A DNA stretch of 64,000 nt from Candidatus Campbellbacteria bacterium (GCA_024653945.1 JANLIT010000002.1:11940-75939), one strand, 5' to 3'; shown: positions 3,084-62,295, numbered from the stretch's first letter. A program made the numbers and translations. The notes: generated from the letters alone by a model not told the origin.

Positions 3084-3170
3084 CCCTATTTTTGAGAACA
3101 CGAAAACCGCCTGCTGGCGGTTTTCTCTCTCCGACGTCGCCACGCCTACAAAGTTTCTCAAAAATAGGGC
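3084..3170. repeat. palindromic terminator-like element (family also at 21444, 31153, 36855) directly 3' of infC
   Basis: ccctatttttgagaa...aaaaccgcc-tgct-ggcggtttt...ttctcaaaaataggg: outer inverted repeat enclosing a terminator hairpin. Confidence 0.6.
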
Positions 3171-4012: not shown

Positions 4013-5827
4013 CTATTGATTCTTTTCCATAAAACCACTTACTTGCAAATCCCACAACTTCTTATACAAACCACTATCTTTGTTTGATAACTCATCGTGT
4101 GTTCCATCTTCAACAACTGAACCATTACCCATAACTATAATACGGTCCATTTTTTTCACAGTTGAAAGTCTGTGTGCAATAACAATCGTTGTACAGTCCT
4201 TCATAAGATTTTCTAAAGCACCCTGAATGAGCGACTCTGAGTATGAATCGAGACTTGACGTTGCCTCATCGAAAATAAGTATGGGAGCTTTTTTCAGTAT
4301 TGCTCGTGCGATAGCAACACGTTGACGTTCTCCCCCAGAAAGTTTTATTCCACGTTCACCAACAAACGTTTCATATTTCAAGGGCAAGGTATCAATAAAT
4401 TCATCGCAGTGTGCAAGACATGCGGCTTCCTTAACTTCTTCATCGGTAGCATCTCGACGACCATATCGAATATTTTCAATAAGTGTTCGATGAAAGAGGA
4501 CTGGGTCTTGAGGCACAAAACTGATGTTTTCACGGAGGGATTCCTGCGAAACAAGGCTGATATCTTGACTATCAATGCGTATTGAACCTTTTGTGAGGTT
4601 ATACAGTCGCATGATGAGCCGTACAAGGGTTGTCTTCCCAGCACCAGATGGACCAATAATAGCAACCTTTTCTCCTGGTTTAATGGTGAGGGTGATGTTG
4701 TGTAACACTTTATTATTTTCTCCAAACGCAAATGATATAGAGTCAAACACTATTTCACCTCGTGTCACAACTAACTTTTTTGCGTGTGGTATATTTTTGA
4801 TTTCATGCTTTGTAAGCAAAATATCAACCATCTCTTTTGAATCAGCGATACTTTGATAAATATTTCGAATTATTTTGTTGAGACCCCACAATTGGTTAGC
4901 AACACCAATAATGTACGTCTGTGCCAACACAAACGTACCTATCGTAATAAGACCAAGGCTCCAGTATCGTATCGCAAAGTAAAATACGAAAAATTCAACA
5001 ACAGATATCAGTAAAATTTGTATGGCATCTACAACGTTTCCCAAACGCCAAGAGAAGAGTATTTTTTGGGCCTGATCATTAGAAACTCCTTGGAAACCAA
5101 GTGATTCATGTTTATGGCCGGTGAAAAAAGATATCGCATTGTTGTTTGTTATAGAATCCGCCAAATACCCCGTGGTTCGAGAGTCAGCCTCAGCAACGGC
5201 CGTATCATATTTTAGTTTCCATGTAGAAAACACCACACTAAAGACAACAAATATGACAACCCACACCCCTAAAATAACAGAAATAACAGGAGCCACAGAC
5301 CATGTAATCCATATTGAACCAATAATAGTTATGGTAAGAGGCATCATATTAAAGGCCACGCTGTCAGTGAGAGCCTCAAACGCACGGCTGAAACGACCAA
5401 CCCTTTGAACAAGACTTCCACTAAAATTGTTAGCAAAAAAAGTATATGAATGCTCTATCATATAGGTAAAAGCATTCTGTTTTAAACGCGCCATAACACT
5501 GGACTGCATTTTTGTGAAAAAGTATGTTCCCGCTTGCCAAAAAAGTTGATTTCCTAAATGTAAAAATAAGATAATAAAAATTACTCTATTAAGATCTGAA
5601 ACTACAGAAACGGGGTCTGTGGATTTTCCAAGAATATCAAAAACGTCTTTGTAGTAGAGAGGAACAATAACGTTGACAATCTGAGCACAAAAAAAGAAGA
5701 CGTACGAAAAAACAAACCAGTTTTTCATTGGTCGTACACCATTCCAAAACTGGGTCATTATTTGACTAATGGAAATATTTTGACCTAATCTGCCACTTTC
5801 TTTCATAACCTTCACACTATACAACAA
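4013..5827 (-). CDS. ABC exporter, fused permease-ATPase (MsbA/bacteriocin-exporter type)
   Basis: 604 aa; N-terminal 6-TM domain; C-terminal NBD with Walker A GPSGAGKTT, signature LSGGERQRVAIARAIL, Walker B ILIFDEATSSLD, H-loop IAHRLST. Confidence 0.9.
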   Translation of the reverse strand: MLYSVKVMKESGRLGQNISISQIMTQFWNGVRPMKNWFVFSYVFFFCAQIVNVIVPLYYKDVFDILGKSTDPVSVVSDLNRVIFIILFLHLGNQLFWQAGTYFFTKMQSSVMARLKQNAFTYMIEHSYTFFANNFSGSLVQRVGRFSRAFEALTDSVAFNMMPLTITIIGSIWITWSVAPVISVILGVWVVIFVVFSVVFSTWKLKYDTAVAEADSRTTGYLADSITNNNAISFFTGHKHESLGFQGVSNDQAQKILFSWRLGNVVDAIQILLISVVEFFVFYFAIRYWSLGLITIGTFVLAQTYIIGVANQLWGLNKIIRNIYQSIADSKEMVDILLTKHEIKNIPHAKKLVVTRGEIVFDSISFAFGENNKVLHNITLTIKPGEKVAIIGPSGAGKTTLVRLIMRLYNLTKGSIRIDSQDISLVSQESLRENISFVPQDPVLFHRTLIENIRYGRRDATDEEVKEAACLAHCDEFIDTLPLKYETFVGERGIKLSGGERQRVAIARAILKKAPILIFDEATSSLDSYSESLIQGALENLMKDCTTIVIAHRLSTVKKMDRIIVMGNGSVVEDGTHDELSNKDSGLYKKLWDLQVSGFMEKNQ

Positions 5828-7704: not shown

Positions 7705-9003
7705 TCACCCCCTTTCGTGTGCGTAGAAGTGGATAACGTCGCACTTATGCCTAGACGGTATCCTGTAGTCACCGCCCTCTACGAGAGCTAGGCCAATGCA
7801 ACTGTCGCAGTAATTCCGATTGCGACAGACCATGCACTGCTGCATCTCTCGAAGAGAGAACTGAGTGAGTACCTGTTTTCGTCGTCGGAGAATCTCGGCC
7901 AATGACTCAGAGGAAGTATCCCCCAACGGTACCCTGAGATCGAGACAAGGATAGACAACGCCCCGTGGGTCAATGGCTATTTGATCCCTACCAGCAAAAC
8001 ACACAGTGTGATTTCGACAGTCGCGATACTTCTTCTGGGTAGGAAAACCGCCGATGCGATCCAGAAAAGGCTTAAACTTCTCTTCCATCTCCTGATACGA
8101 AAGACGGAAAAGCACTTCTTTTCCTGGGCCACTACGGTTCGGTGTAATGTATGGACTGTAGAAAATCGACGCTCCGATTTTCGTTAGAACATCGTGGACC
8201 TCATCGATTCGGTCGATGTTGTGTTTTCCAACCAAAACCGAGAGTGTGACGGGTAGTCCGCACCGAAGCATCTGACGGACGCTCTCCTTGAGTCGATCAA
8301 ATCGATATACCGACCTGGTTAACTCTGAGTACCCAGTCCGTGTTTCATACACCGAAACCTGGATGTCGTACAGGTGAAATCGTGACAACTTTTCGACGGT
8401 ACCCAGAGTGAGAGCCGTTCCGTTCGTTTTTAGTTCCAGAACGAAACCAATCTCCTCAAGATCTTCCATCACAGAGATAGCGTCTCTGCGGAGAAAGAGC
8501 TCTCCTCCTGTAAGAAGAACAAAAACCACTCCCGCCGACTTCAATTCTTGTCCCAACTTCTGAATTCTGTCCCTGGACAAGCCCTTCTCATGGAAGTTGT
8601 CCAAATAGCACCAACTACAACGCTGGTTGCAAAGATACGTCAGCTCGAGATTCGCGTTGATAACCTGCCACTCGCGTATTGCGTAAGCAGACAACTCCTC
8701 TAATGCCGTCTTTTGGGTCCGAATCACTTTTTGTGGGAACCTGTACGCCGACTCATCAGACAAGGAACGAATCACTTCTTTGATTTCAGCAAAATCTGTT
8801 GTAATGTCACCACTATCCTCTGGACGAAATTGCTCCAGAAAATCGTTGGTGAGTTGATGCTGTGGTTCGTTGACAATTCTAACTGCCTGACTTGCAAGAG
8901 GACCCTCGAAAAAAGCTGATTTACGGGTCGTCTTATTAATGATGAATGAAGCGCCCCGAAAATCTCGTGAGATAAGGTTTTTCACGGCCACACCCCTTTT
9001 CAA
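7705..9003 (-). CDS. radical SAM enzyme with C-terminal SPASM-type auxiliary cluster domain and ~100-aa N-terminal extension (possible peptide-recognition domain)
   Basis: CNQRCSWCY (CxxxCxxC) about 120 aa in; C-terminal Cys cluster CFAGRD..YPC..CMVCRNRNYCDSC; GC higher than surroundings. Confidence 0.85.
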   Translation of the reverse strand: MKRGVAVKNLISRDFRGASFIINKTTRKSAFFEGPLASQAVRIVNEPQHQLTNDFLEQFRPEDSGDITTDFAEIKEVIRSLSDESAYRFPQKVIRTQKTALEELSAYAIREWQVINANLELTYLCNQRCSWCYLDNFHEKGLSRDRIQKLGQELKSAGVVFVLLTGGELFLRRDAISVMEDLEEIGFVLELKTNGTALTLGTVEKLSRFHLYDIQVSVYETRTGYSELTRSVYRFDRLKESVRQMLRCGLPVTLSVLVGKHNIDRIDEVHDVLTKIGASIFYSPYITPNRSGPGKEVLFRLSYQEMEEKFKPFLDRIGGFPTQKKYRDCRNHTVCFAGRDQIAIDPRGVVYPCLDLRVPLGDTSSESLAEILRRRKQVLTQFSLREMQQCMVCRNRNYCDSCIGLALVEGGDYRIPSRHKCDVIHFYAHERG

Positions 9004-9111
9004 AGAACTGTAGATGTCGCAGAAGTCTCTATCGTTCTGCTGGTGATAATAAAAGCTGCTACGTATTCTGTCAATACCTCCACAAAATCGACTTTAGAAA
9101 AATTTTATCCT

Positions 9112-9139
9112 CTACATTGCTGGGAATTCGACGAAAAAG
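9112..9139 (-). repeat. direct-repeat copy of the histidine-kinase 3' end (encodes FFVEFPAM*), att-like
   Basis: ctacattgctgggaattcgacgaaaaag aligns with 10702-10728 and 11403-11432, including the in-frame stop. Confidence 0.6.
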
Positions 9140-9142
9140 TGT

Positions 9143-10680
9143 TCACTTTTTAAAATATCCATTCTGTATGCTGTATTCTCTTGTTATCCCAAGGTGGCCA
9201 CATAAGTCTTCGTTGTGAGAAACAATCAGAATTGCACCCTTGAAGTTAGCGAGTGCCTCTGTAAATACAGAGATGGTAGAAATGTCCAAATTGTTAGTTG
9301 GTTCATCAAGAACTACACAATCAAAGTCAGCAATGGTTATCATCGCCAGAGAAAGTCGTGCCAACTCCCCACCGGAGAGTGACCCGGCTTTTTTATTTAC
9401 CTCTGGTGTTTCTCTAAAAAGAAATTGAGCCAAGTGTGTACGCAAAAGTTTGTCATCTGTTGTATGTGTAATACGCTGTATATTTTGAAGTACAGTAAGT
9501 TCTCGGGAAACCAAATCATAGTGCTGGTCTAAATACACCACCTTCAAACTTGGCGTTTTTTTGACTATGCCAACAAGTTTTGCAGGGGAGGTGTCGTCAA
9601 AAAGTGCTCTAAGAAGAAGTGTTTTACCAGACCCATTATCTCCCGTAATCCGTACCCTGTCTCCGGTAAACACATCAAAAGAAATATCCGATACCACTGT
9701 TTTATTTGGAAGAACGAGGTTGGCACCATCAACCGATACTACAAATCTTCTACCTATTTTTTTTGAAGGTACATCAAGCCGTACAATGTGTTTTTTAGAG
9801 AGTATGGCATCCTGCAAATCCTCTTCTTTTTCTTCTTTTGCACTCTTTAGTCTCGTGAGGTTCTTTCCTGATTGTTTCTCCGATTGTTCTTTAAAATATC
9901 CCTTTTCGTACGGCGACATATTGTTGTCCAGTTTCTCTTTTTTTCCAACAGATACAGACCTCTGCTTCTTTGTGTGTTCAACAACAAGTGCCAACTTCGC
10001 TTGTTTCACTATTTTTTTCTTTGCCTCAAACTGGCGCGTGGCAGCGGCGCGTTCGTTCTCAATCAATTGTGCATACGTCGTATAGGTACCTTCCGTGGTT
10101 CTAATTTTTTGATGTTCAATGGTCCAAATTTGGTTAGTTGTTGCATTCAAAAAGTCTATATCGTGTGACACGACGACATACGCACCCACAAAAACTTTTA
10201 GATAGGACTTCAGACGAGCAATTCCAGCAGAATCAAGATGATTGGTTGGTTCATCAAGTAATAGAATACCTGGGGCCAACACTCGAGCAAGAGAAAGATA
10301 TACTTTGATGTATTCCCCACCAGATAAGTTACTCATTTTTGAGTCGAAGGGTACTGTTTTTTTGAAAGGGTCAAAAACTCTTTCTCAAAAAGATGTTTTG
10401 AAACCGAGTGTTTGGATAAGAGAGTGGCAAGAGTGGCTTCTTTATCTGCATCTCTTTTTTGAGGAACAATAAATACTTTTCCATTCACTGTGCAAGAACC
10501 TGTGTCTGGCGCAATATCCCCATGTATCATTTTGAGCAATGTCGTTTTTCCTGTTCCGTTATCACCAATAAGACCAACACAATCTCCTGAAAACAGGGTG
10601 AGGTGCGAAATATGCCACAAAAGCTGATCTCTTATTGAGTAGGATGCGTCTTGTATGAGAATAAGAGGGTTCCTGTTCAT
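9143..10680 (-). pseudogene. ABC-F family ATPase (two NBDs, EttA/Uup-like), interrupted by a frameshift in a homopolymer
   Basis: Track ORFs 10333..10680 (Walker A GLIGDNGTGKTT) and 9143..10336 (starts MSNLSGGEY: signature, Walker B LLLDEPTNHLD, then a second NBD with GDNGSGKT, LSGGELARL, VVLDEPTNNLD) meet at a 7-T run (+ strand 10357-10363). Eight would restore one 500+-aa ABC-F reading frame. Confidence 0.7.
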
Positions 10681-10701
10681 ACCCCCATACTACACCGTAC
10701 C

Positions 10702-10728
10702 TACACCCCAGGGAATTCGACGAAAAAT
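10702..10728 (-). repeat. direct-repeat copy of the histidine-kinase 3' end (encodes FFVEFPGV*), att-like
   Basis: ctacaccccagggaattcgacgaaaaa; reverse complement reads TTT TTC GTC GAA TTC CCT GGG GTG TAG. Confidence 0.6.
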
Positions 10729-10761
10729 AAGGTTGGATATCTTTTATGTCATAATGAGTAC

Positions 10762-11406
10762 ATGGAAGAATCAATCAAACTATCTTTTGAATATTCAAAA
10801 TCTCTTGAGAAAGAGAGAGTTATCAATACAATCAAGCGCCTTCCGTGGTATCGGGATAATAGATATAACGTTGATATAATTGCTTTCCCAAAAAATCTCG
10901 ATACGAATAATCTCGTAAGTACTTCTGACGAGGACATTTTAAATGCTATCGATTTAGAATATAACCAAGAAAAACACATCTCCTCTGAAAAAGAAATGAC
11001 AAAACTTTTTAGCTTATACGAAGGTAGATTAGTATCTTTTTTGAAAGAGACTGAGTTGCCTATCATCTCAAATATTATCGTTCATTTGGTTATGTATGGC
11101 ACAGCAGGAAGTTATTCCTTGCCCAATAAGGTAATCGTTAATATTTCAAAGTTTTACAATGTTGGACTAATGAGAAATATACTCCATGAAATCATCCATC
11201 TACACATTCAACATCTGATAGATACATACAAAATTGGCCAGTGGGAAAAAGAACGAGTGGTTGATTTATTGATGGAGAAATGTTTTCCAGAAATAACAAA
11301 ACAACAACATATTCAGATAGATACCACAAAAATTGATGAGGTATTCAATACACACTACCCAAACGTGCCATATATACTAGAAACTATTGGAGAGATATCT
11401 CGCTAA
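10762..11406 (+). CDS. hypothetical protein with HExxH motif
   Basis: NILHEIIHLHIQH; ATG at 10762 (track ORF starts earlier at 10651); convergent with the HK and overlapping its stop. Confidence 0.5.
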   Translation: MEESIKLSFEYSKSLEKERVINTIKRLPWYRDNRYNVDIIAFPKNLDTNNLVSTSDEDILNAIDLEYNQEKHISSEKEMTKLFSLYEGRLVSFLKETELPIISNIIVHLVMYGTAGSYSLPNKVIVNISKFYNVGLMRNILHEIIHLHIQHLIDTYKIGQWEKERVVDLLMEKCFPEITKQQHIQIDTTKIDEVFNTHYPNVPYILETIGEISR

Positions 11407-13181
11407 ACCCCAGGAAATTCAACGAGGAAGGTGGAGCCTTTACCTCGTCCTTTGGACTCGGCCCATATGCGTCCATTGTGTGCAGTAACAATTTGCTTGG
11501 CAATAAAGAGTCCGTAGCCGGTGCTGTGCACATTGGTGATGCGTGAGTCTTTTCCGCGCCCACCCTCGGTGAAGAGCACCGCCTTGTCTTCGTCCGTCAG
11601 CCCCACACCGCTATCTTTAACAGAGAAAATAATCTTACCGTCTTTGTGTGCAAGAGACACGGTCACCGAACCCTCTGGCGTGTAGTTGATGGCGTTATCA
11701 ATAAGATTTTTAAGCACGTGATTGAAAATATAGTCGGCATCTCCTGAAATCGTATATTCATCCCCCTCTGGTATATCCAAAGCAAGTGCTAGTTTCTTGG
11801 TTTCGGCGCGCCTCTTCATGTCCTCAATCCCCTTCATAAGCAATTCCTTCAAACTCAAATTTTGCATTGCATATGTGACTTGCCCCGTCTTAAAGTCAGA
11901 CACATGCAAGAAATTTTTAACCTCAGTAACTCCCTCTTGTGTACGCCTCAATGCTTCTATAGATATCGCCTTAATATCGGGAGCAACGGGACCAAAACTT
12001 TCAGTGGCAATCGCATCAAACCCAGCCGATGCATCAGTAAGGTACCCTTTAACTTCGTGTGTGATGAACCGGAGTGTCTCAAGTTGTCGCACATTCGCAA
12101 ATTCCAAACTCTTTGCAAGTTTCTGTGTCTCCTCACGCAATCGCACTTCCTGTTTCACACTTTTAATAAGGGCTGTTCCGACGGCCGTAACTAGGCCAAG
12201 CGTCGCAATAATCACATATCGAACATTTTCAATTCTTCGAACAAAGAGCATCGCAAATACCAAGACACCAAGGGCTATCACAAGCATTTGCGTCCCAATA
12301 ATACGCGTGTTGAAGGCATGAAACTTCACCATCATGTATGCAAGAAAGGCAATGAAGAGAACCATTCCAATTGGTCCAATTAGGTTCACCTCATACACGG
12401 AAAAAATATCACCAGCAACGTTAGTTGCTGTAAATATGGAAAGGAAGAACACCGACGCTACTGAAAGCATGACAATCTGCTTTTTAAATTCACCTTCTGC
12501 CGTCTTACGGAAATAGTGAATTCCTAGGTAACCAACAAATGCAATTGCAAAGAATTCGAGAGCATAGATGTAATACCAGAGAGGCCCGTTTATACCCTCG
12601 CAATTAATAAGGTCAAAGGCAACCATATTAAAGCGCGAAGGTAACAAAGCAATAACCGGTGCATACAAGAGGAGAAGTACTCCGTTTTGGTTAATATTCA
12701 AACTCGACTTCTTTAAATAAGTCCAAGTAAAATAGACAACTAAAAACACTAGTGTTACCTGGAAAAATGCCGACATTTCCCAACCAAAATGAACAAAATC
12801 TGCTCGAACAGCTATCCACGTCACTACCTCATTTAAAATAAGTGACGCAAACGTTAGAGAAAGCGCGAGTAGTAGTCTTGAGTGTATTTGTTTTGGGTTT
12901 TTAAAAAAGATAAAAAATCCAAAAAAAACTGAAAAAATAGCGATTGGCAAATATGCATAATAAAGGAGCGTGGGTGCAATTGTTGTATCAAACAAACCAA
13001 GGAAGTTTGCTGTCGAATCGAGACAAAGTAACATTTCCATAACAAAATTGTATAATAGATTCATGAAAAAACAAAAGGGGTATTCGTGGATGAATAAGGG
13101 TTTAAAAGTTAAAAATACAAAAAAGTATGGGGGTGGGGTTTTTGCTACTAGAAATATAGCCAAAAACGAGATACTGGCCAT
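11403..13181 (-). CDS. sensor histidine kinase (multi-TM sensor, HisKA + HATPase_c)
   Basis: About 9 N-terminal TM helices, H-box FITHEVKGYL, N/G boxes (LKNLIDNAINYT, DSGVGL, GYGLFIAKQIV), C-terminus ..STFLVEFPGV*. Likely true start is the ATG near 13040 (MEMLL..). Confidence 0.85.
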   Translation of the reverse strand: MASISFLAIFLVAKTPPPYFFVFLTFKPLFIHEYPFCFFMNLLYNFVMEMLLCLDSTANFLGLFDTTIAPTLLYYAYLPIAIFSVFFGFFIFFKNPKQIHSRLLLALSLTFASLILNEVVTWIAVRADFVHFGWEMSAFFQVTLVFLVVYFTWTYLKKSSLNINQNGVLLLLYAPVIALLPSRFNMVAFDLINCEGINGPLWYYIYALEFFAIAFVGYLGIHYFRKTAEGEFKKQIVMLSVASVFFLSIFTATNVAGDIFSVYEVNLIGPIGMVLFIAFLAYMMVKFHAFNTRIIGTQMLVIALGVLVFAMLFVRRIENVRYVIIATLGLVTAVGTALIKSVKQEVRLREETQKLAKSLEFANVRQLETLRFITHEVKGYLTDASAGFDAIATESFGPVAPDIKAISIEALRRTQEGVTEVKNFLHVSDFKTGQVTYAMQNLSLKELLMKGIEDMKRRAETKKLALALDIPEGDEYTISGDADYIFNHVLKNLIDNAINYTPEGSVTVSLAHKDGKIIFSVKDSGVGLTDEDKAVLFTEGGRGKDSRITNVHSTGYGLFIAKQIVTAHNGRIWAESKGRGKGSTFLVEFPGV

Positions 13182-13632
13182 TTTTGGTGGGTTTATAATG
13201 ACACTGAAAGCAGAGCTGGAGCTTCCATCTTCAATCAGAGACCTAGCTCATCAAATACATGATCAATTTGTCATCGGTATAAAAACCCCCAGCGACAAAC
13301 AGTTGGTTGATAATTTTAACCACAGTTGTAGCCCAAATGCTGGTTTTAAGGGACAAATTTTTTTAGTTGCAATGCGTAAAATACGCAAACACGAAGAGGT
13401 GACCTTCGACTATGCCATGGTCTTAAGTAACCCGGTAAATAGTCCACCTTACAAACTTAGTTGCCTTTGTGGTTCAAAAATTTGTCGAAAAGTAATCAGT
13501 GGAGACGATTGGAAAAACCTTAATCTTCAAAAAAAATACGACGGTTACTTCCAATATTATCTGCAAGAAAAGATAAAAAACCCAAAAAAGAAGCTGTATA
13601 TACTTCCTAAGGATTTCTATGACACTAAGTAA
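13063..13632 (+). CDS. SET-domain protein (putative lysine methyltransferase)
   Basis: NFNHSCSPN, FDY, and a post-SET Cys cluster CLCGSKIC; ATG 13063 preceded by TATAAT at 13051-13056 (leaderless-type). Confidence 0.7.
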   Translation: MKKQKGYSWMNKGLKVKNTKKYGGGVFATRNIAKNEILAIFGGFIMTLKAELELPSSIRDLAHQIHDQFVIGIKTPSDKQLVDNFNHSCSPNAGFKGQIFLVAMRKIRKHEEVTFDYAMVLSNPVNSPPYKLSCLCGSKICRKVISGDDWKNLNLQKKYDGYFQYYLQEKIKNPKKKLYILPKDFYDTK

Positions 13633-13796
13633 TGTTTCTACTCCTCTGCCACTTCTTCTATAACTTCAAAGTCTTGTAAAACGACTGTTTTGTAGTAAGT
13701 ATATCCCACTGAAACAACAACGACTAACAAAAAGAGTACCAGTAGTATCTTTGATTTTTTGTCCATATACAGATACTATACTATGCATACCCTAAT

Positions 13797-15188
13797 ATGC
13801 GAATACTGTTTGTCTCAAAGGACACTATGGCCGGAAACCTTGCTTTCCTCTTAAAAAAAGAGGGGCATAGCGTACGACTTTTCGTTGAAGAACCAGACGG
13901 CAAAAGAAACTTCAACGGCCTCGTCTCCCATACAGATGATTGGAAAAAAGATCTCACATGGGTTGGAAAAGATGATGGGTTAATCATATTTGACGACATA
14001 GGATTCGGAAAAATACAAGACAAACTAAGAAAGGACGGGTATACCGTTTTTGGTGGGTCATACGAAGGTGAGAAACTCGAAATAAATCGATACATCGGAC
14101 AAGAGATTTTTAGACACCACGGAATAAAAACGATGCCCCTTCTTGATTTCCACCACATTGATGATGCGGTGGCTTTTTTAAAAGAAAATCGAGGTATGTG
14201 GGTTCTCAAACAAAATGGTCCTGAGCGTGAATTTAATTACGTCGGGCAATTTGAAGACGCAAGCGATACGATTAGTGTCTTGGAGAATTACAAAAAAGCA
14301 AACGGTAGTTATTCTCAAGGAACCATTTCGCTTCACCAAAGAGTCGTCGGTATTGAGATGGGGGCTGCTCGATATTTCAATGGTAAGAACTGGGTGGGAC
14401 CAACTGAAATTAGTCTGGAACACAAGCGTCTCTTCCCTGGGGACGTCGGACCAACCACGTCAGAAATGGGAACCCTTGCATGGTACGACGACAATGAAAA
14501 CAACAAATTATTTAAAGAGACCCTTGCGAAACTAAAACCCTTTCTACAAAAAGCAGACTTCCGGGGTGACTTCAGTATCAATTGTATTGTGAATGAAGAG
14601 GGTGCGTTCCCCACAGAGGCAACCGCACGTTTTGGTTGCCCGATAGTACACCTCCAGACAGAATTCCAGGAATCGCCGTGGGGAGAGTTCTTATACGCAG
14701 TGGCGAGCGGTAAACCATACAACCTCAAATGGAAAAAAGGGTACGGCCTCGTTGCGATAGTGGCTGTCCCACCTTTCCCGTACCATTTCAAAAATCATCC
14801 AATCACAAGCCGTGGTATGGATGTTTTTTTTAATGATATGACAGAGGAAGATTTTACACACATACACTTTGAGGAAATTTCAAAAAGAGACGACAAGGAG
14901 GGCGGTGGGTACTACATCTCTGATGACAGGGGGTACGCCCTGTATGTGACCGCTATGGGTGAAACCGTGCTTGAAACCCAACGATTACTTCATAAACGAA
15001 TCAAAAAAATACACATTCCTAAAATGTTTTATAGAAATGACATTGGAAGTAGTTTTATGAAATCTGACGCAAAAAAGCTGAAGGAGTGGGGATACCTCAA
15101 CGGTGTTTCAAACAAACCTCAAATACGTAAATCTCACGTGCTCGTGCACACAAAAAGAAAGCAGCACCCCTCACGGAATGCTGCCTGA
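13797..15188 (+). CDS. ATP-grasp family enzyme (PurD-like fold), function uncertain
   Basis: 463 aa; N-terminal Rossmann-like MRILFVSKD..GH.V, central ATP-grasp-like region; no unambiguous PurD signatures. Confidence 0.5.
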   Translation: MRILFVSKDTMAGNLAFLLKKEGHSVRLFVEEPDGKRNFNGLVSHTDDWKKDLTWVGKDDGLIIFDDIGFGKIQDKLRKDGYTVFGGSYEGEKLEINRYIGQEIFRHHGIKTMPLLDFHHIDDAVAFLKENRGMWVLKQNGPEREFNYVGQFEDASDTISVLENYKKANGSYSQGTISLHQRVVGIEMGAARYFNGKNWVGPTEISLEHKRLFPGDVGPTTSEMGTLAWYDDNENNKLFKETLAKLKPFLQKADFRGDFSINCIVNEEGAFPTEATARFGCPIVHLQTEFQESPWGEFLYAVASGKPYNLKWKKGYGLVAIVAVPPFPYHFKNHPITSRGMDVFFNDMTEEDFTHIHFEEISKRDDKEGGGYYISDDRGYALYVTAMGETVLETQRLLHKRIKKIHIPKMFYRNDIGSSFMKSDAKKLKEWGYLNGVSNKPQIRKSHVLVHTKRKQHPSRNAA

Positions 15189-15747: not shown

Positions 15748-15850
15748 CCTCCCTTTCGGATCACAACATGAGGTTCATCCCCATGTTTTCTGTTGTCTAT
15801 TATAGCATAAAGAAGTGTGTTGTCAAGACACTCCACAGGTCCTGCCCGAG

Positions 15851-15942
15851 CAGCTAAAAAGCCCTTATTTAAAAGGATTTTCTATCCCCTATAGACTAAA
15901 TTATCTGGGTCAATTGAAATCGTGTCTGTTGTGCGTTTGACC
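15851..15942 (-). repeat. ~90-bp direct repeat, copy 1 (3' end of the M16 peptidase gene plus downstream hairpin)
   Basis: ~85% identical to 18310-18397; encodes ..TDTISIDPDNLVYRG* and the downstream cagctaaaaagccc. Confidence 0.65.
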
Positions 15943-17162
15943 ACCACAACTGCTGGAAACGATGCAAAAATTGTCTTCGCGGCATCTTGGATATCTTTTT
16001 TAGTTACCTTAGCGTAACGAGATTCTATATCAAGAAATTCTTCTGGGTGCTCGGCGTGAAGTGCAAACCACGAAAGAGATTCTGTCCGTTCCTGTGCCCT
16101 TTCATTTTTTACATAATAATTAAAGATACTTCTTTCTCTCGCTGGTTCAAGTTCCCCATCAGTACACTCCTCTGTGCACATACGTAATACCTCACGGCAC
16201 ACAATATCAAAGAGTTCGGGTAATAATTCTGGTGTAGTCCCTGAACTAATTCCAAACTTTCCACACTCAGAGTCAGATGACACAGAAGCTGACGTATCAT
16301 ATGAAAGACCTTTTTCATGTCGAACTGCTTTAAAAAGACGTGATGTCTTACCACCACCAAGAATAGTTGCAAGCATATCAACCGCAGGTTTTGTTTCATC
16401 AAAAAACGTTGGTGCGCGGTAGGAGATAAGTACTCGGTTTTGATCGGCCTGAGAATCGTCAATAAAAGAAAGACTTGGTGAGCGTATATCGCTAAATTGA
16501 AATAAGGTGGGAGAGATACTTGTATTTTTTTCTTCGTCCCAAAAAAATATTTCTTCAACAAGTTTTACAATACTTTCAAAATCCATATCGGCGACAACAC
16601 TCAAAACCGCATTGTGCGGAAGATATCTTTTGGTCCAGAAATCAATCGCATCTTTATGTTGTACATTCATCACCTCTTCGGGAGTCCCAAGAACTCTTCG
16701 TGCAAAAGGTGTTCCAGAAAAAAGAAGTGACTGTGCTTTGTCATATGACAAGGAAGAAGATTGTGATTCGTGTCTTTTTGCTTCTTGAAATACAACCTTC
16801 TGTTCGCGTATAAAATCTTCTTCTCGTAGGAGTGGTTGAAACGTTGCTTCAAAAACATATTTTAAAGCAGAATCCAGAGTATGGCTTGGCACAAGAGCCC
16901 AGTACCAAACATCTTCATACCAGGTCTTTCCACCTCCTCGACCACCACATTCAGAGACAAGATTTTCTAATTCGTTTTTTGTAGGATAGTTTTTTGTTCC
17001 ATCCAACACGAGGTGCTCAAGAAAATGAGCAACTCCGGGCTTTTCTCCGTACACGGCGCCCGCCTTCAAACGTATCGAAACGGCACTGATAGTGCTCCCC
17101 GCCCTTCGTTCGTGGATGAGTTTCATGCCATTTTTAAGCCGTTTTGTGGTGATATTTTGCAT
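15882..17162 (-). CDS. M16-family (pitrilysin-like) zinc peptidase
   Basis: inverted zinc motif HFLEHLVLDGT (HxxEH) about 45 aa in; 426 aa. Confidence 0.85.
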   Translation of the reverse strand: MQNITTKRLKNGMKLIHERRAGSTISAVSIRLKAGAVYGEKPGVAHFLEHLVLDGTKNYPTKNELENLVSECGGRGGGKTWYEDVWYWALVPSHTLDSALKYVFEATFQPLLREEDFIREQKVVFQEAKRHESQSSSLSYDKAQSLLFSGTPFARRVLGTPEEVMNVQHKDAIDFWTKRYLPHNAVLSVVADMDFESIVKLVEEIFFWDEEKNTSISPTLFQFSDIRSPSLSFIDDSQADQNRVLISYRAPTFFDETKPAVDMLATILGGGKTSRLFKAVRHEKGLSYDTSASVSSDSECGKFGISSGTTPELLPELFDIVCREVLRMCTEECTDGELEPARERSIFNYYVKNERAQERTESLSWFALHAEHPEEFLDIESRYAKVTKKDIQDAAKTIFASFPAVVVVKRTTDTISIDPDNLVYRG

Positions 17163-17380
17163 ATACGTGGATTATACCCCAAAAAAATATAAAAAAGAAA
17201 ATGGTGGTGTTTGGTGGTGTTTACCAATTACCACCATTGATCAAAAAATGTTTTCTCACCATCTAGGAATGAGTTTCTCAGGATGGTAAGTGGTCCAAAA
17301 CAGAGGACACCCACCTGCGCAGACGTTAAATTTTTCATACTCAACACGCCTCTGTGCCCGTCTGACAAATAAATAAGGAA

Positions 17381-17440
17381 GGCTACAGTTGGGACAGAAA
17401 ACCCAATCTTTGGGTATCTTTGTAGCCTTCCTTTTAATTC
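17381..17440 (-). terminator. intrinsic terminator after 17434..17967
   Basis: 13-bp stem aaggaaggctaca...tgtagccttcctt followed by a T-rich run on the minus strand. Confidence 0.55.
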
Positions 17441-17967
17441 GCCTTACGGAAATCCTTGATGATTTTGTCTGCACCGTCTCGGTCGATGATGTCCCACGCA
17501 CGTTTATAGTTCTCGTTTGTAGTGTTCCGTGCCACCTTCAACTGCCCACCGGACAGAATAAGCGACAGAATTGCATATGTCATCACGTGGTTGCGTACCT
17601 TTTGGCTTTCATTAGGAAACGGCAACGGCGCGTGTTCCGAACCAGACATCAATCGATGGGTGAGTTCATGGCACAGGGCAACAATGAACTCTTCTTCCGT
17701 GTATCGACTTTTGAGAACCAACGGACGCGAATGGTCTCGTATAGTCCCTGAAAGAACATAGCACTCAATGTGTGGCTCGAATGTGAGTCCTGTGATTTGC
17801 TCCATGTGAGCCATGAGTGCCGAACCAATCTGAGCCCAAATGCGCTCATAGTTGTCCCTGCGGGATTCCAGTTCCTCCTTTGACGGCGGCGTCCAAGTCG
17901 GATAGGCCTCAATTGCCTCCGCTTCGTGGAGACGATTGAGTTCCTCACTTGTGTGAAAGGTAATCAT
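17434..17967 (-). CDS. GC-rich hypothetical protein with HExxH motif (ALCHELTHRL)
   Basis: ATG at 17967 with SD GGAGAA 5 nt upstream (the track's TTG start is 17979). Confidence 0.5.
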   Translation of the reverse strand: MITFHTSEELNRLHEAEAIEAYPTWTPPSKEELESRRDNYERIWAQIGSALMAHMEQITGLTFEPHIECYVLSGTIRDHSRPLVLKSRYTEEEFIVALCHELTHRLMSGSEHAPLPFPNESQKVRNHVMTYAILSLILSGGQLKVARNTTNENYKRAWDIIDRDGADKIIKDFRKAN

Positions 17968-18038
17968 GGTGTTCTCCAATTAAAGATGCCCCCCGCGTAC
18001 TTATCAGGGGGGCAAGTGGTTCGGTAGAGACTTCAGTC

Positions 18039-18146
18039 GCTGGCAGGGAAGCTGTCCTCGCTGTAGTCGTCCTCCTCCGCGTCCATCAACGGACCGAACA
18101 TGGCCGTATCCTCGGTCGTGTCCCGCTCGTCGGGGTCGGGCATGTG
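18039..18146 (-). CDS. possible 35-aa acidic peptide MPDPDERDTTEDTAMFGPLMDAEEDDYSEDSFPASD
   Basis: SD GGAGGTGAGAACAGGTG before the ATG; ~62% GC patch; under the ORF-track length cutoff. Confidence 0.25.
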
Positions 18147-18309
18147 ATTGGGCACCTGTTCTCACCTCCTTTAGTGGGCTGGTTGCCAGTACTATCTACC
18201 TACAAAGATACAGAAGACACGAATAAAAGTCAAGTGCGAAGGGGCACCCCGTTCCAAGCACAAGGGCTTGCCGGGATTAAGTCAAGCAACTTAAGGACTC
18301 CACCAGAAC

Positions 18310-18397
18310 AGCTAAAAAGCCCCCTACGTAGGGGCTTTTCTAGCCCCTATAGACCAATTTGTCTGGGTCAATTGAAATAGTATCCGTTGGGCGTTTA
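18310..18397 (-). repeat. ~90-bp direct repeat, copy 2 (orphan copy of the M16 peptidase 3' end: encodes TDTISIDPDKLVYRG* out of context, plus the hairpin aagcccctacgtaggggctt)
   Basis: alignment with 15851-15942 read directly; lies immediately 3' of the LOG-like gene. Confidence 0.65.
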
Positions 18398-19015
18398 ACC
18401 CCTGAGTTCGCCTTCTTCGCCTGGGCGGTAGCTTGTGGTCATCCGGTCTGCCAATTTGTCCTGCTTCACCAGCTCAATCACTTTTGCCACAAGTTTTTTG
18501 GGGTTCGTGTCAAAAATAACTCGTTCGTGTGAACGATTGCTTCGCTCCAGAATAATTTTCATGGTTTCGTCTGTCGTCCATTCCCCTTCCAAGATACCAA
18601 TCGGCTTATTGTCTTCAAAGGCAATCGTAAATTCATGAATGGTTCCAATGCGTCCGCACCCAAAGAGTACGGCGTCTGATGAGCGTGTAAGAATAAGATC
18701 GCGTCCTGAATAGCCGAAACCTGTGTACACAATCATGTCCATGTAGTCCAACGGCAGGCGAAATGCTTCAACGTGCTCACGTTCAGACGCTGCCGGAGAA
18801 AAACCAATTGATTTGCCACCTGCTTCTTTTGCTCCAATGGCCGCCCACAGAGGAAAACCTGTCGTGGCACCCGTTACAAGAACCGCGCCATTTGCTGCGA
18901 TTTCGTGTCCAAGCTCTTTAGCAACTTCATATGCACGTGAACCACACGAAGCGGTCTCAGCAGCACCTGATACACAAATTTTTATATCGTGTTCTGTTCT
19001 TTTTCGCAAAGACAT
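18395..19015 (-). CDS. LOG/TIGR00725-like Rossmann-fold nucleotide-binding protein
   Basis: ICVSGAAE..GAVLVTGATTG..GFSPAASE..GFGYSG..LFGCGRIGTIHE pattern. Confidence 0.55.
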   Translation of the reverse strand: MSLRKRTEHDIKICVSGAAETASCGSRAYEVAKELGHEIAANGAVLVTGATTGFPLWAAIGAKEAGGKSIGFSPAASEREHVEAFRLPLDYMDMIVYTGFGYSGRDLILTRSSDAVLFGCGRIGTIHEFTIAFEDNKPIGILEGEWTTDETMKIILERSNRSHERVIFDTNPKKLVAKVIELVKQDKLADRMTTSYRPGEEGELRG

Positions 19016-21014: not shown

Positions 21015-21443
21015 TTACAAACGAAAACTTCGACCTATGGGGGGCCGAAGTACTCGTGTGGGGGCTATCTCAGATGAGTTACCTAGCATGTGCTAGGTGG
21101 GTGTCCTAAGTACATACACCGGAGCGTATGGTTTGAAACAAAATCAGACTCCCTGTAACAATTAATTTGATCTAGATAATATCCAAAATAACCCCTACAC
21201 CAATCCTACTCCCTATCAAAGAACACTGACAAGGGGGATAATGCTTTGCACGACACTACACAAAAAAGTGAAGTATGTGTGTCAAAAAATCCGCCATGCA
21301 GACGGATTTTTTGTTTTGTCTGTTTCAAATAATTGACAGAAATTTTCTTTTTATTTGAGATGTGTATTTTTCTATCGTGTTTATGTCTTTTGAATTTAAA
21401 ATAGAACTTTTGTCTTACAAAAGTTCGTGTACGGAGCAAGCTT

Positions 21444-21525
21444 CTATTTTTGAAAGACTTTGAAGGCACGGCGGTGCCGGAGAGAGAAAACCGCCTGCTG
21501 GCGGTTTTCGTGCTTTCAAAAATAG
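21444..21525. repeat. palindromic terminator element (same family as 3084, 31153, 36855) directly 3' of ndk
   Basis: ctatttttgaaagactttgaaggcacggcggtgccggagagagaaaaccgcctgctggcggttttcgtgctttcaaaaatag. Confidence 0.65.
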
Positions 21526-31007: not shown

Positions 31008-31152
31008 TTCCTTCTCCTTTTTCCAAGGTCTATAGTTAAACAAATTCTGATAGGACAATACGCTTCTAGATAAGCAAAGTCAAACCAAACGTCCTTGTAT
31101 TTAAAGTCCCGCCCAGACATTGTCTGGGCGGGGCGTCGTACGAAGCGAGTCT

Positions 31153-31230
31153 CTATTTTTGAAAGACTTTGTAGGCACGGCGGTGCCGGAAAGAGAAAAC
31201 CGCCACCGGGCGGTTTTCGTGCTTTCAAAA
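31153..31230. repeat. palindromic terminator element directly 3' of secY
   Basis: ctatttttgaaagactttgtaggcacggcggtgccggaaagagaaaaccgccaccgggcggttttcgtgctttcaaaaata. Confidence 0.65.
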
Positions 31231-31249
31231 ATATGAGACGAGTGAAGAG

Positions 31250-34212: not shown

Positions 34213-34300
34213 ATAAAGTTGAAGTTGGAAGTTTGAGGTTGGGAGTTGGTTTTTGTTTTCTTTGTTATTTGCTATTTGTCATTTGCTATTTCCCCTTACT

Positions 34301-36854: not shown

Positions 36855-36897
36855 AAGAAAACCGCCTGCTGGCGGTTTTCGTGCTTCTACAAAATAT
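36855..36897. repeat. partial palindromic terminator element directly 3' of rplE
   Basis: gaaaaccgcctgctggcggttttcgtgcttctacaaaatatgag; shares the ttcgtgctt..aaaatatgagacgag tail with 31200-31240. Confidence 0.55.
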
Positions 36898-37822: not shown

Positions 37823-37955
37823 ATTTTTTAAATCCGAAATCCGAATGTCGAAATCCGAAACAAATTCGAAATCATGAGTGTTGGGGTTTTTAACATTTGA
37901 ACATTCATATTTTGTGCTTGTTTCGAGCTTCGTGCTTCGATATTCGTGCTTATTC
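37823..37955. repeat. ~130-bp r-protein leader repeat upstream of rplX
   Basis: near-identical to 39441-39570. Confidence 0.65.
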
Positions 37956-38690: not shown

Positions 38691-38784
38691 ATAAAGTGGA
38701 GGTTGGAAGTTTGAGGTTGGTGATTGGTTTTAGTTTAGTATAGTTTTTGCTACTTGCTATTTGTCATTTGTCATTTGTCATTTG

Positions 38785-39440: not shown

Positions 39441-39570
39441 ATATTTTTTTAAATTCGAAATCCGAATGTCGAAATCCGAAACAAATTCGAAATCATGAGT
39501 GTTGGGGTTTTAAACATTTGAACATTCATACTTTGTGCTTGTTTCGAGTTTCGTACTTCGATATTCGTGC
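39441..39570. repeat. ~130-bp r-protein leader repeat upstream of rplP
   Basis: tttttaaattcgaaatccgaatgtcgaaatccgaaacaaattcgaaatcatgagtgttggggttttaaacatttgaacattcatactttgtgcttgtttcgagtttcgtacttcgatattcgtgcttat. Confidence 0.65.
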
Positions 39571-40230
39571 TTATTTCTTGTCAAAGATATCCCCACGGTA
39601 AATCCACACACGGATACCAATCTGACCTTGTGGAATGTGTGCCTCATCATGTGCATAATCAATATCTGCACGGAATGTCTGCAACGGAATACGCCCACGC
39701 TTAATCTGTTCACGGCGTGCCATGTCAGATCCGCCGAGACGTCCTGAAAGATGAATACGGACTCCTTGTACGTCACGGTTTGCCATAACTTTCTCAACCG
39801 TCTGTTTCAACACACGACGAAATGGTGTTCGTTTCTCAATTCCTTCAACTGCCATCGCAGCCACAATTGCCGCGTGCGATTCGGGAGATTTTATTTCTTC
39901 AACTTCAAGTTTGAGTGTGTCCGCACTTGCAAGTTTGTTCTTAAGAACAAACGTGTCCAATTCTTTCTTGAGTTTTGCGATACCCTCACCAGAACGTCCA
40001 ATGATAAGACCGGGACGAGATGTTTTGATGACGATACGCAACTGTGAGTTACGTCGTTCGATATCCACACCACTCACATACATCATACGCGTAAGCTGTG
40101 TAATTTTTCGACGAAGTAACACGTCGGTTCGGAGAAACTTTTGATATTCACCCGCACGAGCAAACCATCGTGATTGCCAATCACGCAAGATACCTAGACG
40201 GTGTGCAAATGGATGTACTCGATGTGTCAT
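39571..40230 (-). CDS. rpsC: 30S ribosomal protein S3
   Basis: KH domain ..IIGRSGEGI..; 219 aa. Confidence 0.9.
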   Translation of the reverse strand: MTHRVHPFAHRLGILRDWQSRWFARAGEYQKFLRTDVLLRRKITQLTRMMYVSGVDIERRNSQLRIVIKTSRPGLIIGRSGEGIAKLKKELDTFVLKNKLASADTLKLEVEEIKSPESHAAIVAAMAVEGIEKRTPFRRVLKQTVEKVMANRDVQGVRIHLSGRLGGSDMARREQIKRGRIPLQTFRADIDYAHDEAHIPQGQIGIRVWIYRGDIFDKK

Positions 40231-54782: not shown

Positions 54783-55042
54783 ATGTTTTTTGTGTTAAAC
54801 AAAAAAACGGCTACAAGTGCCGCCGCTCTAAGAGTGGTCGACCTCAGTAGGACCTCTGACTCTTGTACGTGTGAGTCTGCCTACTTTCTCCGGCCTTGTG
54901 AAAACAACTATACTCAATCCCTCTCATAAATGCAACATCCCATGCGCAAAGCCCCGCTCGAGTACGAGCGGGGCTTTCCTTACTACTTACTACTTCCTAC
55001 TTTCTACTCTTGGCTTTCTACCTACTACTTTCTACTTCCCAC

Positions 55043-62118: not shown

Positions 62119-62295
62119 CCATGGTGTTAGTGCAGAGAGGAATGTCGCGCCAGAATGGTCGCGATTTTTGTTTAAAGTATTGGGTTAGGTGTTGGCAATT
62201 AGTTTTGGTTTAGTTTTTTATTCTTAATACATACTACTTTCTACATACCACTTTCTACTTACTACATTCTACTTACTACTTAACCCTATCCACAT

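Follow-up and report, generated by a model that had tools for sequence, protein, structure and literature searches.

Extra copies of a sensor kinase gene 3′ end in a Candidatus Campbellbacteria bacterium as probable fossils of serial allele displacement

Introduction

Three direct copies of the 3′ end of one sensor histidine kinase gene lie in a 64-kb stretch of DNA (hereafter the window) from a Candidatus Campbellbacteria bacterium, a member of the Candidate Phyla Radiation (CPR). One copy is the authentic end of the gene; the other two are probably fossils of serial displacement of kinase alleles by recombination and not attachment (att) sites of an integrase. The kinase locus is a replacement hot spot, at which a small transmembrane (TM) open reading frame (ORF), a SET-domain or methyltransferase gene, the sensor half of the kinase and the content downstream of the kinase are exchanged. 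CPR bacteria (Patescibacteria) are uncultivated, with small genomes that are thought to be streamlined, and gene gain and exchange in them are poorly known. Such tail fossils provide a readable record of repeated replacement of alleles and gene blocks at one locus, as well as a marker for tracing recombination in metagenomes.

A preliminary description of the window had read the copies as att-like scars of successive site-specific integrations into the kinase 3′ end, or else as a recombination hot spot that recruits cassettes. We compared the window with related loci, denoted by L and a number, that were fetched around kinase orthologues found by homology searches. L007 is the complete genome CP064977.1 and L008 is an independent assembly of the same locus. 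A scan of the genomes of the species yielded only one useful relative, a 4-kb contig.

Results and Discussion

Three copies of the kinase 3′ end

The copies are numbered by position, copy 3 being the end of the intact kinase (Table 1). A repeat search of the window (family D1), a six-frame search and 300 shuffles confirm that there are three of them, direct, co-oriented and in register, reading F[FL]VEFP[GA][VM] plus TAG on the minus strand. The peptide motif F.[VFLI]E[FL]P has only three six-frame matches in the window, which are the three copies, and the pattern F[FL]VEFP, two residues and a stop is observed three times against no match in 300 Markov-shuffled windows. At the nucleotide level copies 1 and 2 have the 17-mer GGGAATTCGACGAAAAA in common without mismatch; the 64 kb contain no other occurrence of it, and a nucleotide profile built from the copies found no further site there either. 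No run of at least 6 nt is common to all three window copies. The likely outer limits are ~10738 for copy 2, with indels, and ~9142 for copy 1. The layout is as first described, with an ABC-F gene between copies 1 and 2 and a gene with an HExxH motif between copies 2 and 3. Copy 1 begins 4 nt past the ABC-F stop, and the kinase stop in copy 3 overlaps the stop of the convergent HExxH gene.

It is hardly credible that the copies are a functional short motif, such as a terminator or a response-regulator operator, or a chance match. Their settings could suit such a role, since copy 1 is closely followed by a strong promoter-like site and copy 2 lies between divergent genes. However, none of the 300 shuffles gave a match, a scan of the window found no hairpin or terminator at the copies and no inverted-repeat structure inside them, and there is no Rfam family match in 8500-14000. 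The copies are moreover collinear with intact kinase tails in relatives. A common motif unrelated to the kinase, which the preliminary description had named as a way in which its reading could fail, is contradicted by the same collinearity and by the presence of only three sites within the 64 kb. As candidates in their own right, terminator, promoter and structured-RNA roles were rejected on the lack of a hairpin at the copies, of an Rfam match and of a tRNA (no tRNA or tmRNA in 1-26000).

Copy 2 and the displaced kinase allele

The close relative L012 resembles the window in most of the locus, with amino acid identities of 94% for GARS, 89% for NDK, 84% for beta-CASP, 87% for LDcluster4 and 91% for ABC-F. 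However, the kinases are only 65% identical, and the gene upstream of the kinase is a methyltransferase gene in L012 (as in L007 and L015) and a SET gene in the window. By blastn, the left homology ends at L012 7138 (window 13750), inside a small ORF starting MDKKSK, and there is no homology across the L012 methyltransferase and kinase genes. It begins again at L012 9756, the position in the intact L012 kinase that is exactly 27 nt ahead of its stop; the equivalent window position, 10727, is where copy 2 has its 5′ edge. From there it continues for 1610 nt at 90.4% identity through a leader and ABC-F into copy 1, ending inside it at 9123. Copy 2 matches the L012 kinase tail at 24 of 27 positions and the window's own kinase tail at 22 of 27, and it sits at the background divergence between the window and L012. 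Because homology resumes exactly at the 5′ edge of copy 2 and runs on through ABC-F, copy 2 appears to be the orthologue of the L012 intact-kinase tail, still joined to the gene downstream of that allele, and thus the tail of a displaced allele.

The current kinase is not the orthologue of the L012 kinase. Its last 810 nt are 79% identical to L012 overall and 57% at third codon positions, compared with 91% and 82% for ABC-F, which indicates that it is a different allele from that of L012 along its whole length. It is also a mosaic: the C-terminal half is 77-97% identical to L012 in amino acids (per 60-aa window), while the N-terminal 240 aa are 27-50% identical to the L012 kinase and 62-78% identical to the L097 kinase. 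A swap of the sensor half alone was rejected, given third positions at 57% in the conserved half against 82% in ABC-F. A recent horizontal transfer of ABC-F, which might be read from its 93% identity against 65% for the kinase, was likewise rejected, since identities of 84-94% are usual between the two genomes and it is the kinase that departs from them. The difference from L012 is therefore a replaced block of ~3 kb comprising the upstream gene, the whole kinase and HExxH, and not an inserted HExxH gene, which counts against the single-cassette insertions that the preliminary description had seen behind att scars.

The same block is found as a unit elsewhere. L097 and L099 have the order IF3-L35-L20 (-), a 37-aa ORF, radical SAM, a 51-aa ORF, HExxH (+), kinase (-), SET (+) and GARS (+), with an HExxH homologue (61% identical) in the same convergent position beside the kinase and SET and with the same kinase/HExxH overlap as in the window. 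There, HExxH closes a cluster of small peptides and radical SAM. Identities between the window and L097/L099 are 63% for the kinase and 61% for HExxH, against a background of 64-79% for the genome pair. The SET-kinase-HExxH block is thus a native arrangement in other Campbellbacteria, and in the simplest history it replaced the methyltransferase-kinase block of an L012-like genome.

Copy 1, empty sites and variable layouts

The region after the kinase is likewise variable between relatives, with empty sites and recurring extra tails. L012 carries the kinase, ABC-F behind the same 20-nt leader and a second kinase-tail copy, FFVEFLGA plus stop, whose junction to the ABC-F stop is the same as at window copy 1. 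In L013 the kinase is directly followed by the sequence found after the second tail of L012, and in L015 directly by AGGAATAAAATTTTGATAAAGT...TTGAC, which is the element after window copy 1; copy 1 and its downstream sequence are collinear with the intact kinase tail of L015 and the sequence behind it. L007 and L008 have the kinase, a CYTH gene, a 42-nt tail copy (GTGSTLLVKFPGV plus stop) and then the same A/T-rich element. The kinase is thus followed directly by downstream sequence without cassettes in L015 and L013, as a synteny check had been expected to reveal if the blocks were acquired, and the layouts after the kinase differ among L012, L013, L015 and L007, which disposes of a gene order common to all relatives. 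This variation of bounded gene blocks between relatives agrees with the second option of the preliminary description, a recombination hot spot.

L012 and L013 look like a simple occupied/empty pair for the ABC-F unit, but their kinases are 55% identical in amino acids. Both carry an extra region, X; it closes with ...CCCGGCAGCTTTGTTTTTTAG, a degenerate tail-like sequence directly ahead of the ATAAATTTT element. Window copy 1 may, with low confidence, have arisen as a hybrid when X was lost from between two tails. The flanks of L007 and L013 are 97% identical in nucleotides, yet the N-terminal halves of their kinases are 25-32% identical in amino acids and the C-terminal halves 90-98%, suggesting that the sensor half and the upstream gene turn over between near-identical genomes. 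In the three Campbellbacteria cases, inspection by eye showed no motif common to the flanks of the fossils except the ABC-F leader, a similarity that descent accounts for.

Two further features were observed in these relatives. The product of region X (L013 ~5060-5260; L012 ~11460-11660) is a small Cys-rich peptide, MTNEHSVFLPDQSGTESTEPKCTRCGCPMEAH...CTGCGLRCQGY...; a radical-SAM gene and an HExxH homologue lie downstream, and the region may be part of a cluster resembling those of ribosomally synthesized and post-translationally modified peptides. In L007 the element GAGATAAAATTTTGATAAAGTCGA occurs at 4757-4781 and 12270-12294 with 25 of 25 positions identical; one follows the kinase tail and the other lies upstream of an acetyltransferase gene, and this reused element may be a promoter UP-like element.

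Tail fossils across the kinase family

A metagenome scan with a kinase alignment yielded 80 further loci, their kinases being 34-51% identical. Tails were sought with peptide motifs, blastn and tblastn, and those in short ORFs and anchored at the 3′ end were taken. We observe 21 fossils in 13 loci, namely L007, L012, the window and 10 loci of the wider family, which have four extra tails (L070), two (L020, L035, L092 and L093) or one (L040, L042, L071, L075 and L090). All 21 lie downstream of the intact kinase and on its strand (binomial p about 2e-13). Their lengths are 27, ~31, 42, 43, 62, 69, 70, 80, 84, 87, 105, 113, 119-144 and >300 nt. The 3′ 120 nt are duplicated for the kinase in 13 of 87 loci, compared with 16 of 802 other genes of at least 150 aa (Fisher p = 6e-7), an enrichment of about eight-fold; kinase paralogues are involved in about six of the 16 control duplications. 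The fossil region of L035 is collinear with L075, which has an intact kinase end, a 40-nt hairpin and an older 43-nt fossil, and this comparison follows the same logic as that of the window with L012.

Tandem kinase paralogues that decayed by deletion until only 3′ ends were left are a very improbable source of this pattern. Full-length paralogues in tandem or nearly so do occur, three in L031 (10001-14921) and two in L061 (983-6760). Random erosion should, however, leave 5′ and internal pieces too, and nearly all fragments are 3′-anchored; where the window has copy 2, L012 shows one kinase and no trace of another; and more events would be needed than under displacement.

Two unusual junctions were noted in the wider sample. 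In L093 an ORF at 8318-8716 fuses a short N-terminal stretch, MADCPFNAHHKTLLVFHLVCPVKYRRKVF, to a kinase fossil of ~300 nt; by eye only, the stretch resembles the start of an IS200/IS605-type transposase, Pfam gave only HATPase_c, and the ORF would be an illegitimate junction involving an insertion sequence. In L001 the 3′ end of the SET gene beside the kinase (gene at 1456-1971, -) has a 61-nt, 95%-identical copy at 29-89, ~1.4 kb downstream, with two small paralogous genes in between, so that tail fossils occur on the other side of the SET-kinase pair too.

Block contents and the search for a recombinase

The blocks between kinases and fossils contain many toxin-antitoxin (TA) pairs (PemK/MazF twice, HicAB twice, AbiEii twice, HepT, a Phd-VapC-like pair and a DUF4258/DUF2283-like pair), together with a glycosyltransferase cluster, CYTH, ABC-F and methyltransferases. 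Some hold housekeeping genes (HisRS, aspartokinase, ASD), in part on the opposite strand. The earlier view of cassettes between copies is right in that true duplicates of the kinase end bound variable blocks, but its att-scar mechanism does not fit the blocks that hold housekeeping genes. By tblastx no cassette is shared between arrays except by the window and L012; the cassettes are not a circulating family in this sample.

The preliminary description had found no integrase in the window, and we observe the same on a wider basis. Pfam detected no recombinase family in the 20 larger (non-housekeeping) window ORFs scanned, none is present in the Pfam annotations of the genes at related loci that are orthologous to those in the remaining flanks, and ~100 ORFs from 15 arrays likewise gave no integrase, recombinase or transposase. 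Successive site-specific integrations with an attP that mimics the kinase 3′ end, by elements now decayed or mobilised in trans, are therefore improbable in our judgement. Such integrations would account for direct repeats that reach the stop codon and restore the reading frame, for the empty sites in relatives, for arrays of up to five copies (L070) rich in TA modules, and for the four short fossils that start near the same codons. However, besides the missing enzyme there is no tRNA target, and the repeats, from 27 to >300 nt, have no constant length; homology to the target gene on the 5′ side of the crossover is not expected in an attR. Among the three window copies there is neither a common core of at least 6 nt nor a fixed 5′ boundary, the kinase and its upstream gene are replaced relative to L012 where an integration would merely have added a cassette, and some supposed cassettes carry opposite-strand housekeeping genes. 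Direct repeats of a gene 3′ end should thus not, by themselves, be annotated as proof of an integrase-borne element.

A scheme for serial displacement

Under serial allele displacement, an early allele, HK_0, would have been directly followed by the ATAAAATTTT/TTGACA promoter of the radical-SAM operon. DNA with a second allele, HK_a, and ABC-F would then have recombined in, with ~31 nt of HK_0 remaining as copy 1. In a third step, DNA with the native SET-HK_b-HExxH arrangement would have recombined in, leaving copy 2 on the HK_a leader and ABC-F; the left crossover would lie in the conserved flank of GARS and the small ORF, and the right join 27-38 nt before the HK_a stop. Because displacement leaves a tail together with its old neighbour, each fossil would precede the gene that once followed that allele, and copy 1, whose junction is common to L012, would record an earlier event of the same kind. 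The direction of events and the joining chemistry are what we infer, the latter being most likely RecA-type homologous recombination on one side and an illegitimate or short-homology join on the other. Existing fossils could later act as portable homology for further gain and loss. That fossils are short and 3′-anchored probably reflects a constraint on joins, which have to leave intact the signals by which the downstream gene is expressed and, in many arrays, an addictive TA pair; long kinase-core fragments would probably be harmful or unstable.

Several points weigh against this scheme. The order of events comes from a single close relative per comparison, and the joining mechanism is deduced from end products. 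The relatives are metagenome assemblies throughout, yet the independent assemblies L007/L008 and L097/L099 are concordant. A recombinase may act in trans from elsewhere in the genome, and the TA-rich block contents resemble integron arrays. Four independent short fossils (copies 1 and 2, L007 and L035/L075) all start close to the GKGST codons (within ~10 nt), a hint that joins may favour one site. In L040 the first ~90 nt of the 113-nt duplication are near-identical and the last ~20 nt diverged, a pattern in better agreement with cassette insertion and target duplication, or with later gene conversion, than with replacement of a whole allele. Finally, homology-facilitated illegitimate recombination is rare where it has been measured (PMC5361080).

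The main rival to displacement, which we consider unlikely, is a Campbell-type insertion of the cassette only: a circular or linear piece with a kinase 3′ fragment and a cassette, for example one excised through tail/fossil recombination in another cell, would integrate at the resident tail and duplicate exactly the fragment that it carries, the allele swap being a separate matter. It would suit the ABC-F/fossil junction, which is the same in the window and L012 while the downstream sequence differs, the switch being inside the fossil at 9123. It would also suit the near-identity over the first 90 nt in L040 and the L092 array, in which fossils 2 and 3 are identical over 52 nt where the real tail differs at 5 positions. 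Insertion of the cassette only would, however, need a second, independent event for the difference in kinase and upstream gene, which ends exactly at copy 2. A stretch of 27-31 nt barely suffices as homology for RecA-type recombination, the first fossil would still require an illegitimate origin, and no cassette is common to two arrays except in the window and L012. On the side of insertion again, circular intermediates have been proposed for the displacement of Rhs tips (PMC2935791).

A broader idea, to which we give only limited credence, would make the kinase 3′ end the anchor of a recombinase-independent, integron-like gene-capture array in CPR bacteria, with the hypervariable unit as a specificity (pherotype-like) module. 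Homologous or short-homology recombination at the kinase tail would bring in sensor alleles, cassettes or both; old tails would serve as portable homology arms for transfer of cassettes between strains and for their loss, and addictive TA cassettes would ratchet the array longer. In parallel, the small TM ORF, the SET or methyltransferase gene and the sensor half could form the specificity module.

Comparison with known systems

At type VI secretion system (T6SS) loci of V. cholerae, effector genes are displaced one after another, which gives rise to arrays of orphan immunity genes (Kirchberger et al. 2017, PMC5361080). That study proposed homology-facilitated illegitimate recombination, considered an integron-like process although no integrase was found, and drew a parallel between displacement arrays and integron arrays; whole arrays later spread by ordinary homologous recombination (PMC5361080). 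The kinase arrays share with them the repeated succession in which an intact gene is followed by a new neighbour, then by what is left of the 3′ end of the displaced gene and finally by the old neighbour, with no integrase, and the proposal of a homologous anchor with an illegitimate join. Unlike in the T6SS arrays, the displaced gene is a two-component sensor kinase and not a toxin, the variable half is the 5′ sensor half, and the neighbours are not immunity genes but a mixture (ABC-F, HExxH, CYTH, TA pairs, glycosyltransferases and housekeeping genes) in CPR hosts. For the C-terminal displacement arrays of Rhs genes, homologous recombination with circular intermediates has been proposed (Jackson et al. 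2009, PMC2935791). As with Rhs tips, co-oriented partial fragments lie downstream of a functional gene whose conserved part serves as the recombination anchor; the Rhs pieces, however, are complete variable 3′ tips with a short 5′ core and are reusable, whereas the kinase pieces are non-functional tails of 27 to ~300 nt from the conserved end.

By the marks of a displacement array, the partial copies at the kinase are co-oriented and downstream (21 of 21), the intact gene differs from the allele of the fossil, and collinearity of fossil and neighbour with a relative is observed directly for copy 2 with L012, copy 1 with L015, the L012 fossil and X with L013, and L035 with L075. The gene is no polymorphic toxin and its neighbours are no immunity genes. 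The kinase array is therefore a variant of sequential-displacement arrays and not a member of the class, and it shows at a signalling gene an architecture that had until now been associated with loci of polymorphic toxins. A full-text literature search found no description of displacement arrays at a sensor-kinase gene of CPR bacteria.

Integrases that target gene 3′ ends include those of e14 and phage 21 in icd, and ICESt1/ICESt3 with accretion of cis-mobilizable elements (CIMEs) at fda. The kinase arrays resemble these att duplications in their direct repeats of a gene 3′ end that restore the frame, in tandem accretion and in integrase-less, CIME-like units. Unlike there, we see no fixed crossover, no shared core and no integrase in any element, and the variable fossil length likewise speaks against the att-scar mechanism of the preliminary description. 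Cassette arrays of chromosomal integrons are one-directional, consist of small units with many TA cassettes and gain new units at the head, so that older ones move back. One-directional arrays of small promoter-less or self-contained units with many TA cassettes are found at the kinase as well, but no IntI, attI or hairpin-forming attC was found here, and the repeat is derived from coding sequence and variable in length.

At the pherotype loci agrBDCA and comQXP, a variable N-terminal sensor half and upstream genes are combined with a conserved kinase core, with breakpoints inside the kinase gene. The locus described here is alike in its hypervariable sensor half and upstream genes, its conserved core and its breakpoints within the kinase, but no signalling peptide or processing enzyme has been demonstrated for it. 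We know of no tail-fossil arrays described for agrBDCA or comQXP.

Features of the locus

Table 1. Positions of the kinase-tail copies, genes and elements of the locus, counted from the first letter of the window.
Feature	Position	Strand	Remarks
Copy 1	9112..9138	-	FFVEFPAM + TAG; CTACATTGCTGGGAATTCGACGAAAAA; probable older fossil tail
Copy 2	10701..10727	-	FFVEFPGV + TAG; CTACACCCCAGGGAATTCGACGAAAAA; probable fossil tail of displaced allele HK_a
Copy 3	11403..11429	-	FLVEFPGV + TAG; CTAAACCCCAGGAAATTCAACGAGGAA; authentic 3′ end of current kinase
Sensor histidine kinase, allele HK_b, 545 aa	11403..13040	-	Pfam HATPase_c, E=2e-22; mechanical ORF reaches 13181
HExxH-motif gene, 214 aa	10762..11406	+	HEIIH; convergent with kinase; between copies 2 and 3
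ABC-F type ATPase gene, frameshifted	9143..10680	-	ORFs 10333..10680 and 9143..10336, each with Pfam ABC_tran
ABC-F leader	10681..10700	-	GTACGGTGTAGTATGGGGGT; same leader follows intact kinase in L012
Conserved A/T-rich element and promoter-like site	9046..9111	-	AGGATAAAATTTTTCTAAAGTCGA; follows copy 1
Radical-SAM/SPASM gene	7705..9003	-	Pfam Radical_SAM and SPASM; first gene of operon behind oldest kinase allele
SET-domain gene	12970..13632	+	Pfam SET; divergent from kinase
Block without nucleotide counterpart in L012	10728..13749		HExxH, whole kinase, SET, 3′ part of small TM ORF

The kinase has a multi-TM N-terminal sensor half and a conserved kinase core. It is 100% identical to P0001, a Ca. 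Campbellbacteria protein; exact-protein look-ups of the kinase and HExxH ORFs gave no match, the deposited start of the kinase being different. The HExxH ORF has no Pfam match, and the SET gene probably starts near 13072. The block without a counterpart in L012 would be the incoming segment. ABC-F is split by a 1-nt deletion in an A-run (about 10336-10360) relative to the intact 512-aa L012 orthologue, to which its pieces are 89-93% identical; either the gene is an orphaned neighbour of a displaced allele that has become a pseudogene, or the assembly has a homopolymer error. In L014 a 153-aa gene stands ahead of ABC-F; the leader there reads ACGTTGTAGTATGAGGGGGT, with TTG TAG closing that gene, and the window leader retains ~9-11 nt of the gene's 3′ end as a relic, ACGGTGTAG. 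The promoter-like site after copy 1, TTGACA-17-TATTAT at 9074-9046 on the minus strand, scores 11/12 and faces the downstream radical-SAM/SPASM operon; in L013 a radical-SAM gene also lies behind the same A/T-rich element. That element is the ancestral sequence directly after the kinase stop.

A small single-TM ORF with a variable acidic tail (MDKKSK...YK[ST]V[IV]L[KQ]D...) is conserved between GARS and the SET or methyltransferase gene (window ~13632-13760, -; L007 8981-9133; L012 7122-7274; L009 9257-9403). This ORF varies jointly with the kinase sensor half and the SET or methyltransferase gene, as one unit that recalls pherotype loci.

Other repeats and remnants in the window

The 3′ end of an M16 peptidase gene (15882..17162, -) is also copied: 18333-18400 is 85% identical over 68 nt to 15875-15942, ending ...TDTISIDPDKLVYRG plus stop. 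This copy stands directly after the LDcluster4 stop, ~1.2 kb upstream of the intact M16 gene, and is thus a gene-tail fossil upstream of the intact copy. The block 15808-18406 is absent from L012, and no solo M16-tail copy was found at the corresponding L012 site. On the minus strand, 17259-17357 holds a fragment of 33 codons that matches, at 70% identity, the 3′ end of the L097 radical-SAM gene preceding HExxH. It adjoins a 181-aa ORF (17434..17979) with an HELTH motif, and the two look like a broken L097-type cluster of small peptide, radical SAM and HExxH. The M16 and radical-SAM tails suggest that gene-tail fossils are general.

Other repeats in the window are intergenic or terminator-like. 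In the region of ribosomal-protein genes, 32986-54278 contains 7-8 copies of intergenic repeats of 56-131 nt with AAATCCGAAATCCGAATATCGAAATCCGAAAC (e.g. 37824-37954 and 39445-39575). A 96-nt pair, 21429-21524 and 31138-31233, is 91% identical and ends in the hairpin AGAAAACCGCCTGCTGGCGGTTTTC. The hairpin part is present in four copies, the others being 3101-3138 and 36856-36893, and it looks like a repeated terminator whose flank is duplicated in one pair. Intergenic repeats with a period of 7 or 14 nt (TACTTTCTACTT... and TTTGCTATTTGTCATTTG...) occur at 1456-1488, 54977-55037 and 62214-62295, and at 34252-34299 and 38737-38784.

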